Source: an uncultured archaeon (GTDB lineage Archaea > Thermoproteota > Bathyarchaeia > Bathyarchaeales > Bathycorpusculaceae). Taken from it: a stretch of DNA of 64,000 nt. Shown piece after piece: positions 2,899 through 4,119 of this stretch. Location: the NCBI GenBank assembly GCA_963810275.1, contig CAWENF010000019.1, positions 1-64,000 of the forward strand, read 5' to 3'. A program made the translations under genes and the position numbers. Below the pieces are notes generated by a model, which saw only the letters and a program-made list of their open reading frames with translations, had not been told where the DNA came from and did not search any database. Position 1 is the first letter of the stretch; every line of letters starts with the position of its first letter.

Positions 2899-2911
2899 AT
2901 AACAGCGTTAT
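2899..2911. promoter_or_regulatory. Palindromic candidate operator ATAACagcGTTAT upstream of metY
   Basis: Perfect 5-3-5 palindrome 39 bp upstream of the metY GTG, downstream of a TTTAA box on the minus strand; recurs at 3336 and 4105. Confidence 0.65.
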
Positions 2912-2968
2912 AATCGTTCTTGACAGTTAAATTCCAAAAAGAATAAATCACATAATAAATATTCCAGT

Positions 2969-3322
2969 TTAAATGTAGTAGTCAGGCTTCGGACCACACC
3001 CATCCGAACGCCTGCGGCGGCACAAAGACGAACACAGACGACAAAAATCAACCGCCAAAGCAGCATCCTCATCGCCAGCCGCGATTTTCTGAGCTTCCTC
3101 TTGTGCCATAAAACGGATTTTTGGCAAAAACTCCTCAACCTGCCCCGCCCCCTTAAAAGCCCGCTTCGAACTCAAATACTGAGACACGGCGGCTTGGCTG
3201 GTGCCTAGCTTTTTGGCGGCGGTGGTTTGGCTAAGGTGGTGTTTCTGGACAAGTTCTTTGGCTATCATAGCGCGGAATATTGGTAGTATGTATTTGCCGA
3301 CGCTTTCGCATTGGGGCTCCAT
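2969..3322 (-). CDS. Small archaeal HTH transcriptional regulator with N-terminal Cys and C-terminal CxxCxxxC
   Basis: PQCE...LPIFRAMIAKEL...LSQTTAAKKLGTSQAAVSQYLSSKRA (HTH), FCRLCSSLC. Confidence 0.8.
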   Translation of the reverse strand: MEPQCESVGKYILPIFRAMIAKELVQKHHLSQTTAAKKLGTSQAAVSQYLSSKRAFKGAGQVEEFLPKIRFMAQEEAQKIAAGDEDAALAVDFCRLCSSLCRRRRSDGCGPKPDYYI

Positions 3323-3335
3323 GTTTACCGTTTTG

Positions 3336-3352
3336 CTATAACGGGTTTATAG
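3336..3352. promoter_or_regulatory. Near-palindromic candidate operator CTATAACgggTTTATAG
   Basis: One mismatch to ATAAC-N3-GTTAT; lies between the divergent regulator genes. Confidence 0.55.
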
Positions 3353-3465
3353 GTAAAAACCTTTTCAGCAGGCAGGCAAATTTTGAGTTTACGCAGAATT
3401 TGATGGTTAGTCAAAAATGGTTTATTCCAAAAGTAATATAACCACATACCGCAAATTTCTAAACC

Positions 3466-4020
3466 ATGTTCCCAACGCTCGAAGACATCGCCAAACGCCG
3501 ACGCCAACTAGGCCTCAAACAGTCCGAACTCGCCAAAGCCGCAGGCGTATCCCAATCCCTTATAGCCAAACTCGAAGCTGGAACCATCGACTCCTCCTAC
3601 AACAAAGTCAAAACTATCTTCGACGTACTCGAACGCTTAGAATTTAAAACCAGAGTTCAAACCGAAAAACTTGTACACAGCGAAGTCATATCCGTCCAGA
3701 AAAGCACCCCAATTTCCGAAGTCGTCAAAGTCATGAAGACACACGAAATCAGCCAGATGCCAGTGTTTGACGGCAAGCAATCGGTTGGCAGCATCTCTGA
3801 GAAAGCGATTTTGCACCAGATTCTCTCAGGCCACGATTTGGAAGAGATTTCAAGGTTGCCGGCGGAGAAGATTATGGAGGAGGCTTTTCCGCAGATTAAT
3901 GAGGAAGCGCCTTTGCCATTGATTACAAGTTTGCTGCAGACTTATTCGGCGGTTTTGGTTTCACGACGGGGCGATATAATTGGTATTATTACTAAGGCGG
4001 ATTTGCTTAGGATGCTTTAA
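3466..4020 (+). CDS. XRE-type HTH transcriptional regulator with C-terminal CBS pair
   Basis: LKQSELAKAAGVSQSLIAKLEAG HTH followed by two CBS motifs (ISQMPVFDGKQSVGSISE; GIITKADLL). Confidence 0.9.
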   Translation: MFPTLEDIAKRRRQLGLKQSELAKAAGVSQSLIAKLEAGTIDSSYNKVKTIFDVLERLEFKTRVQTEKLVHSEVISVQKSTPISEVVKVMKTHEISQMPVFDGKQSVGSISEKAILHQILSGHDLEEISRLPAEKIMEEAFPQINEEAPLPLITSLLQTYSAVLVSRRGDIIGIITKADLLRML

Positions 4021-4104
4021 TCAGGTTTTTATTTGGGTTTAGGTTTCTTTGTTTTGTTGTTTGTGGTGTTTTCAGTAAAGATTTTTATGCGCCATCCAAC
4101 GACT

Positions 4105-4119
4105 TATAACAGTGTTATA
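4105..4119. promoter_or_regulatory. Palindromic candidate operator TATAACagtGTTATA upstream of cysK
   Basis: Perfect 6-3-6 palindrome about 16 bp downstream of the TATA-like TTTTTATG (4082-4089). Confidence 0.7.

Follow-up and report, generated by a model that had tools for sequence, protein, structure and literature searches.

Two palindromes and two candidate regulators at a sulfur amino-acid locus of an uncultured bathyarchaeon

The stretch of DNA analysed here, which we call the window, is 64,000 nucleotides (nt) long and comes from an uncultured archaeon of the family Bathycorpusculaceae (Bathyarchaeia). It spans positions 1 to 64,000 of contig CAWENF010000019.1 (our C19) in assembly GCA_963810275.1, a genome of 2.26 Mb in 28 contigs. 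At its start lies a compact sulfur amino-acid locus: a metY-metX-metW operon on one strand, cysK and cysE on the other and, between them, two small genes whose products both carry helix-turn-helix (HTH) domains. We call these Cys-HTH and HTH-CBS, the first for its cysteines, the second for its pair of CBS domains. Both pass the gathering cut-off of the HTH_3 profile (PF01381), which stands at 23 bits, with 25.2 and 37.7 bits, respectively. Two palindromes recur in the promoters of the locus, ATAAC-N3-GTTAT (operator A) and ATATTC-N6-GAATAT (operator B). On balance, we think that each belongs with a regulator of its own and that the two pairs meet at the sulfur amino-acid genes. The features are collected in Table 1, in which open reading frame is shortened to ORF and amino acids to aa.

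Table 1. Genes and candidate operators of the locus, numbered from the first letter of the window
Feature	Position	Strand	Sequence or basis	Remarks
metY-metX-metW operon	3..2860	minus		proposed target of operators A and B
metW	3-470	minus	ORF and profile searches	runs off the window
metX	454-1572	minus	ORF and profile searches	
metY	1583-2860	minus	ORF and profile searches	GTG start at 2860
Operator A at metY	2899..2911		ATAACAGCGTTAT	exact; centre 45 nt before metY GTG (2860)
Operator B, metY side	2929..2946		AAATTCCAAAAAGAATAA	centre 32.5 bp upstream of operator A in the metY direction
Cys-HTH	2969-3322	minus	HTH_3 with cysteines	117 aa; ATG at 3322; proposed binder of operator A
Tail codons P-D-Y-Y-I	2972..2986	minus		Cys-HTH C terminus ...KPDYYI; candidate CysK-docking peptide
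Operator A at Cys-HTH	3338..3350		ATAACGGGTTTAT	one mismatch; centre 22 nt before Cys-HTH ATG (3322)
Operator B at HTH-CBS	3422..3439		TTATTCCAAAAGTAATAT	centre 35 nt before HTH-CBS ATG (3466)
HTH-CBS	3466-4020	plus	HTH_3 and CBS pair	184 aa; proposed binder of operator B
Operator A at cysK	4106..4118		ATAACAGTGTTAT	exact; centre 21 nt before cysK ATG (4133)
cysK	4133-5065	plus	TIGR01139, 459 bits	O-acetylserine sulfhydrylase; proposed target of operator A and proposed partner/sensor of Cys-HTH
cysE	5143-6204	plus	profile search	serine acetyltransferase; N-terminally extended
Lrp/AsnC gene	6382-6843	minus	HTH_AsnC and AsnC_trans_reg domains	

An earlier interpretation of this DNA, made from its letters alone (the sequence-only reading), had noticed operator A three times in 1.2 kb. 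The copies are there, exact at 2899 and 4106 and with one mismatch at 3338. Two of them have extended forms, CTATAAC-GGG-TTTATAG at 3336-3352 and TATAAC-AGT-GTTATA at 4105-4119. The copy at 3336, which had been given to the promoter of the regulator, belongs to the Cys-HTH promoter and not to that of HTH-CBS, for it lies 16 nt from the Cys-HTH ATG versus 116 nt from that of HTH-CBS. Across the window, seven matches with at most one mismatch were observed against 1.5 expected, and none of 100 shuffles reached seven. The whole genome holds seven exact copies (about 3.8 expected), four of them inside long ORFs and three intergenic, and the metY and cysK sites are two of these three. When the whole genome is scored with a weight matrix built from other genomes only, the cysK site comes first and the metY site second. 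The next-best matrix matches in this genome lie in or near unrelated genes (a glycan phosphorylase ORF, MFS, PhoU, AsnC-type/M20 peptidase and ECF-S) and offered no clear lead to extra targets of operator A or B. A fourth copy of A in the window, exact (ATAACCGGGTTAT, 9305-9317), falls within an ORF of 355 aa (8672-9739) and has probably arisen by chance.

Conservation was assessed in 49 genome loci plus 30 loci from 41 related genomes, with upstream regions anchored at start codons; the counts for the metY, cysK, Cys-HTH and HTH-CBS promoters include the window itself. Operator A is exact upstream of metY in 39 of 39 cases, its centre 38-59 nt before the start, and upstream of cysK in 17 of 19, mostly at 20-25 nt (the sites in L039 and L042 are degenerate). 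A one-mismatch version (TATAAg..TGTTATA) precedes 38 of 39 Cys-HTH genes at 20-29 nt, with a median of 22. The palindrome accompanies metY and cysK across at least four gene orders. In alignment logos, its arms reach 2.0 bits per position, G/C positions included; because they are invariant while spacer and flanks vary, operator A has the signature of a protein-binding site. The flanking AACGA(C)T that the metY and cysK copies share in the window, and that had been singled out earlier, disappears in the logos of orthologous promoters. Comparison of promoters does bear out the placement of the palindromes close to the TATA box and the transcription start site (TSS): the left arm, TATAA, lies about 26-29 nt before the ATG at cysK and Cys-HTH genes. 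At cysK, a conventional AAAG-N-TTTTAAG box lies upstream of operator A. Conservation in orthologous promoters and enrichment at sulfur genes was the test that the sequence-only reading had itself proposed, and these counts, with the top genome-wide matrix ranks, answer it in the affirmative. Operator A is supported as a conserved, sulfur-gene-specific operator near the TATA/TSS region and, as far as sequence can tell, the sulfur amino-acid regulon it marks is real.

Operator B had been missed. Its core is ATTC-N6-GAAT and its typical form is ATATTCCAAAAAGAATAT. A matrix trained on other genomes makes the HTH-CBS and metY sites of the window its best and second-best matches genome-wide. With up to two arm mismatches, B is found upstream of 45 of 46 HTH-CBS genes (centre 33-39 nt before the ATG), 39 of 39 metY genes and none of 19 cysK genes. 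We also scanned metagenomic HTH-CBS loci with enough upstream sequence (n = 72): exact ATTC-N6-GAAT occurs within 60 nt before the ATG in 71, against a background of 13 in 415,385 positions, and its centre lies 34-36 nt before the ATG in 69. B-like palindromes stand at the same distance before distant HTH-CBS orthologues from Bathyarchaeia (L018, L070, L072), Methanosarcinales (L076) and Thermoplasmata (L078). Counted back from the HTH-CBS ATG, the right arm of B (GAATAT[TA]) is about 27-32 nt away, as expected of the TATA box if the mRNA is leaderless; in the window, the operator overlaps what is probably the TATA box of HTH-CBS, whose mRNA would have a short leader or none. At metY and at the gene for HcyBio, a DUF39-type enzyme of homocysteine biosynthesis (PF01837), B lies upstream of the likely TATA box.

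The palindrome does vary within the HTH-CBS family. Genomes G033 and G027 have ATTACT-N3-AGTAAT at the HTH-CBS promoter and before the HcyBio gene, which in G027 lies on another contig than HTH-CBS. A subfamily with the helix GVSQAHIAK, in place of GVSQSLIAK, has ATAAC-N5-GTTAT at its own start. The loci of this subfamily (L022-L030, L079) come from other Bathyarchaeia families and encode relatives 32-38% identical to HTH-CBS, with the helix SQAHIAK. Their palindrome stands directly before the start codon, encloses a Shine-Dalgarno-like GAGGT or GGTGGT and has the half-sites of operator A at a spacing two bases wider.

Which protein, then, binds operator A? The sequence-only reading preferred HTH-CBS and named the neighbouring Cys-HTH as the alternative. 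We are reasonably confident that Cys-HTH is the likeliest binder, because its orthologues keep exact A at their own promoter and because A persists where HTH-CBS is missing. In orthologues from other families of the order (43-50% identity, L099-L103), exact operator A stands about 15 nt upstream of the start. Upstream of closer paralogues the palindrome is TTAAC-N3-GTTAA; upstream of a distant paralogue, which nearly all genomes have, ATGAC-N4-GTCAT occurs twice. The recognition helix shifts in step with the palindrome, from TTQAA[VI]SQY through LSPAALTQY/LTPAAITQY to LSQSA[VI]SRY. In G024, where HTH-CBS and metY were not found, Cys-HTH is divergent from cysK-cysE, with operator A at both. G041 (complete, 2.9 Mb) and G006 yielded at most a Cys-HTH paralogue, and their cysK site is degenerate or missing; G007 is without a Cys-HTH orthologue, and a contig of the G007 type (L039) has a degenerate cysK site. 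The distant paralogue, about 129 aa long (G000:C26:49225-49506; L240:3130-3519, minus strand; in nearly all genomes of the genus), has extra C-terminal CxxC cysteines. Its palindromes (L240:3566-3577 and 3585-3596) lie just upstream of a TATA box, and its neighbours encode a winged HTH protein, a CoA-binding protein and a flavodoxin.

The earlier assignment of operator A to HTH-CBS, as a repressor of methionine and cysteine genes that responds to S-adenosylmethionine (SAM) or another adenosyl ligand, is probably wrong, and we now rate it as quite unlikely. The HTH-CBS gene does sit between A sites, and in most members of the genus a copy of A stands 67-69 nt upstream of its start, in the intergenic region that it shares with metY. 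At the HTH-CBS promoter of six loci, B is followed directly by ATAAC-N3-GTTAA, and the distant subfamily has identical half-sites, as ATAAC-N5-GTTAT, at its own. However, A is kept at cysK in G024, G016 and G018, in which no HTH-CBS was found, and where the genes are arranged as in the window, B but not A is present at the HTH-CBS promoter. It is B, not A, that accompanies HTH-CBS into other phyla. In the other families searched, exact A stands at the Cys-HTH promoter, and the HTH-CBS genes there have ATAAC-N5-GTTAT or ATTACT-N3-AGTAAT. What HTH-CBS carries instead is operator B, at its own promoter and at metY, never at cysK.

The company that HTH-CBS keeps points to its role. In the genus of the window, it is usually divergent from metYXW. 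Both HTH-CBS and metY are present in 17 genomes, the window's counted, and neither in five (G006, G016, G017, G018, G024); the two exceptions are G007, with HTH-CBS only, and G004 (71% complete), with only a 5'-truncated metY. G041, too, has HTH-CBS only. The metY of G004 (L118, G004:C8:535-4785) is without its first 13 or so codons and abuts unrelated GC-rich sequence, probably through an assembly chimera or a rearrangement. Farther afield, the upstream neighbour of distant HTH-CBS genes in 31 loci is HcyBio in 23, mostly with a CBS pair of its own, archaeal SAM synthetase in two, a PALP enzyme in one and an unrelated gene or one of no family in five. A bacterial-type MetK in L072 and an archaeal MAT in L078 are both divergent from HTH-CBS. 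Because it is associated with three non-homologous genes of the methionine/SAM pathway, there is strong contextual evidence that HTH-CBS is a methionine/SAM-pathway regulator widespread in archaea. Of what the sequence-only reading proposed for HTH-CBS, the link to methionine/SAM genes is supported by this comparative context across archaea.

HcyBio was also considered as a target within the genus and rejected, there being no conserved A or B upstream; TTAAC-N3-GTTAT occurs in G000 and G014 only. The genus HcyBio genes (DUF39-CBS; G000:C3:~145050-145160, L210:1340-1450, and L211-L235) have a conserved leader of their own, CCTTTTCGATTGGCATTAAGGTAAGGCTA.TTTGTC, after a TATA-like box. Neither operator occurs in it and Rfam gives no match; it may be a leader element not recognised before, or simply the region where ribosomes bind.

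As for its ligand, the CBS pair of HTH-CBS (PF00571, two stretches, 55.6 bits) probably senses SAM or a related adenosyl compound. In Foldseek, a structure model (predicted local distance difference test score 86) retrieves ST2348, AcuB and the regulatory domain of human CBS at E of about 1e-9. A SAM-cycle ligand is supported because the HcyBio neighbour carries a CBS pair in the same pathway, though in BLASTP the two pairs match at an insignificant E of 0.02. We know of no sequence signature that separates SAM-binding from other adenosyl-binding CBS pairs.

The Cys-HTH family is large, with 1,096 clusters at E<=1e-10. It has no name in NCBIfam, and our searches found no solved-structure or fold relatives below E 0.001. 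Cys5, Cys94 and Cys97 are invariant and Cys101 is conserved within the genus; the proteins of the genus have no ligand domain at all. In P0176, a protein of 323 aa, residues 1-120 match the family profile, cysteines included, and are followed by a C-terminal ThiN domain. P0160 and P0206 carry a tandem duplication of the whole Cys-HTH module in one polypeptide of 226-247 aa; by their sequence, such proteins would be single-chain pseudo-dimers. Further candidate targets can be read from operator A in other species. In L047, A sites precede genes for a cysteine desulfurase, a ThiI-like PP-loop protein and cystathionine beta-synthase/gamma-lyase-type enzymes. In other families, exact A lies 23-42 nt before class-V aminotransferases (cysteine-desulfurase-like, in two genomes), DsrE, metY and DtxR-FeoA. 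Distant Cys-HTH orthologues adjoin ThiI-like, ThiF and Aminotran_5/SepSecS-like genes. To judge by such genes, the theme of the Cys-HTH regulon and its neighbours is sulfur assimilation and mobilisation. In L047, a composite of B, about 17 nt and A recurs (200-480 and 3540-3730), ahead of a Zn-ribbon ORF (159 aa) with an alpha/beta hydrolase, and also between the cysteine desulfurase and ThiI-like genes, which suggests that both regulons have expanded in that species. The cysE promoter of the locus has its own conserved TATA-like element and no operator A. Its product has an N-terminal extension of about 150 aa (window 5143-5600), Cys-rich at its start (CSEC...C), that matched no family.

How might a protein without a ligand domain sense anything? 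The answer may lie at its C terminus. Among 120 Cys-HTH homologues, 119 end in Ile, with the consensus P-[ED]-Y-x-Ile-COOH (EYYI in 70, DYYI in 21, EYSI in 10, DYSI in 7, and others), and this tail is conserved beyond a variable linker. In the loci we examined, 53 of 60 Cys-HTH genes encode the Ile tail. According to a bioRxiv preprint (10.1101/2024.09.19.614015), the C-terminal peptides of CysE and CymR enter the active site of CysK, Ile is in all cases the conserved last residue, and the Staphylococcus aureus tails, ...DDYII in CysE and ...YMFYI in CymR, compete with O-acetylserine. Cys-HTH has what marks these CysK-docking proteins, a C-terminal Ile after aromatic/acidic residues. On the other side of the putative interface, the TSGNTG loop and QQF motif of CysK are invariant in our CysK alignment (A3); they correspond to the loop and the Gln residues named as carboxylate ligands in that preprint. 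None of 14 CysE proteins ends in Ile. The local CysE ends in ...HEDKT and is without the C-terminal Ile typical of CysK-binding serine acetyltransferases. By analogy, the Cys-HTH tail probably docks into the CysK active site, and a CymR-like, CysK-dependent mechanism is suggested because the tail resembles those of CysE and CymR and the local CysE has none of the kind.

From the motifs, their conservation, positions, specificity and gene associations, we infer the following pairing of proteins and operators, with their modes of action, ligands and docking. A Cys-HTH dimer would bind ATAAC-N3-GTTAT in the promoters of its own gene, cysK and metYXW and repress transcription of all three; repression is expected because the A sites overlap the TATA/TSS region. 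Its P-[ED]-Y-x-Ile tail would enter the CysK active site as bacterial CysE and CymR tails do, and CysK would serve as the repressor's sensor of O-acetylserine and sulfide. HTH-CBS would bind ATATTC-N6-GAATAT at metY and 35 nt before its own ATG, and the position of the latter copy speaks for autoregulation. Repression through A and autorepression through B are plausible, and B at metY could be either an activator or a repressor site. Taken together, the pieces would make a convergent 'archaeal CymR', a ThiR-type cysteine-bearing HTH protein that has acquired an Ile tail like that of serine acetyltransferases and has CysK as its sensor of O-acetylserine and sulfide, alongside a pan-archaeal SAM-sensing HTH-CBS repressor or activator. 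We offer this combination tentatively, as a possibility that may well prove mistaken. The idea, part of the same joint reading and just as tentative, is that HTH-CBS has been re-wired between HcyBio/DUF39, SAM synthetase and metYXW while keeping ATTC-N6-GAAT.

Several observations weigh against the two-pair model. In G016 and G018 (97-98% complete), the cysK gene is preceded by exact A, yet neither a Cys-HTH orthologue nor HTH-CBS was found. G008 also has exact A at cysK, with Cys-HTH present only as a pseudogene remnant with in-frame stops; its metY site has the sole mismatch to A found at metY. These three genomes and G006 have cysK upstream sequence in common, and A without Cys-HTH in the three may reflect one recent loss, or the sites could be held by another factor or by a promoter function. 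It is because G008, G016 and G018 keep A without an intact Cys-HTH that our confidence in Cys-HTH as its binder goes no higher. For an XRE-type dimer, the 8 bp between the half-site centres of A is an unusually short distance. Seven of the 60 Cys-HTH genes in our loci are without the Ile tail, and the invariant Cys5, Cys94 and Cys97 may be structural rather than sensory because they are also present in the ThiN-fused P0176. On the HTH-CBS side, G041 and G007 keep the gene and operator B without metY, and no B is conserved before HcyBio within the genus; the HTH-CBS regulon is therefore not fully defined. Its CBS pair matches AMP, ADP and Ap4A binders and the SAM-binding human CBS domain equally well. 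Lastly, the relatives compared are metagenome-assembled genomes of Bathyarchaeia and are not independent samples.

If another factor holds operator A, the Lrp/AsnC protein beside cysE comes to mind. Its gene adjoins cysE, is 85-95% identical between species, more so than its neighbours, and keeps synteny with cysK-cysE in many genomes. These include G008, G016 and G018, where A is kept and Cys-HTH is absent, and archaeal Lrp-type proteins bind 13-bp palindromes of just this 5-N3-5 form. Against it, there is no A site at the Lrp promoter, and in G041 A has decayed at cysK although the Lrp gene adjoins cysE (L042). An Lrp model also leaves unexplained the A-like palindromes with co-varying half-sites at every Cys-HTH family promoter. 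Such a factor is a slim prospect beside Cys-HTH.

We consider it very unlikely that the palindromes are core-promoter features, that is, back-to-back TATA- or BRE-like (TFB recognition element) AT-rich elements, and not specific operators. The left arm of A and the right arm of B do fall at the TATA positions expected for leaderless mRNA, and a metatranscriptome contig that starts 1 nt inside the cysK ATG is a very weak hint in the same direction. Yet both arms are invariant, G/C positions included, around a variable spacer; other promoters of the locus have AAAG-N-TTTTA-type boxes; the motifs are confined genome-wide to these few genes; and operators overlapping TATA boxes fit the two-pair model too. 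Metatranscriptome contigs X2, X6 and X12, identical to parts of metY, HTH-CBS and cysK, are a weak hint that these sequences are present in RNA libraries, from which starts, strand or level cannot be read. That the palindromes work at the RNA level, as hairpins or as a leader of the riboswitch kind, is scarcely credible: the sites may be at or after transcription starts and the cysK copy forms a small hairpin (-7.5 kcal/mol), but Rfam covariance models give no match at E<=1 in window 2700-5300 and fold energies are no better than those of shuffles (z -0.2 to -1.2), for which we rejected this reading, and the 5-bp A/U-rich stems are weak and the site-to-start distance at metY ranges over 38-59 nt.

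Archaeal control of methionine, cysteine and SAM synthesis is essentially unknown, as far as the literature we searched goes. That search covered archaeal CBS/HTH proteins, Bathyarchaeota transcription factors, methionine regulons, DUF39/COG1900 and COG3620, with most subscription journals outside its coverage, and returned no published archaeal methionine/cysteine regulon of this kind. Both regulator-operator pairs are apparently uncharacterised. The locus yields two that are concrete and directly testable. The HTH-CBS pair seems to have been kept in Bathyarchaeia, Methanosarcinales and Thermoplasmata alike, beside a DUF39-type homocysteine enzyme and SAM synthetase. The CysK-docking tail, if true, would mean that enzyme-assisted sensing of cysteine was invented independently a second time. 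Motifs A and B permit regulon prediction in uncultured archaea.

A close parallel to Cys-HTH is the CymR-CysK system of Bacillus and Staphylococcus. Like CymR, Cys-HTH is a small DNA-binding protein without a ligand domain that is predicted to control cysteine genes, and its gene lies near cysK: a single gene separates the two in the window, and none in several relatives. Its aromatic-x-Ile-COOH ending is like the CymR and CysE tails quoted above from bioRxiv 10.1101/2024.09.19.614015. CymR belongs to the Rrf2 family, whereas Cys-HTH is an XRE-type HTH protein with no Rrf2 match in Pfam or NCBIfam, in an archaeal host with a TBP/TFB-type promoter. The similarity would be convergent. A second relative is ThiR, the archaeal thiamine regulator, in which an HTH domain is fused to ThiN. 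Cys-HTH shares the cysteine-bearing DNA-binding module of the ThiR-like P0176. It differs in its 117 aa without a ThiN (PF10120) match, which P0176 has, in a predicted regulon for sulfur, not thiamine, and in its CysK-type tail. ThiR is mentioned in PMC12029414 and PMC10746257.

HTH-CBS invites comparison with MetJ, SahR, SamR and the SAM riboswitch, which it would resemble in feedback control of homocysteine, methionine and SAM genes by a SAM-cycle metabolite. The bacterial systems give SAM- or S-adenosylhomocysteine-responsive control of methionine genes (PMC4239095). HTH-CBS is, by contrast, an archaeal XRE HTH joined to a Bateman module; its operator is ATTC-N6-GAAT, not the met-boxes of MetJ, and unlike the SAM riboswitch its locus has no RNA element. 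In coupling DNA binding to a small-molecule-sensing CBS pair, HTH-CBS resembles B. subtilis CcpN, itself a CBS-domain transcription factor, and a second bacterial protein, BCARR. The latter is the Lactobacillus regulator described in PMC3795697; the comparison with both is by CBS pair only, and HTH type, domain order, targets and domain of life differ. In the same pathway stands the commonest divergent neighbour of HTH-CBS, HcyBio/DUF39-CBS, which is an enzyme and not a regulator and whose CBS pair is only weakly similar. In Methanocaldococcus jannaschii, the CBS pair of this enzyme (MJ0100) reportedly binds SAM and methylthioadenosine.

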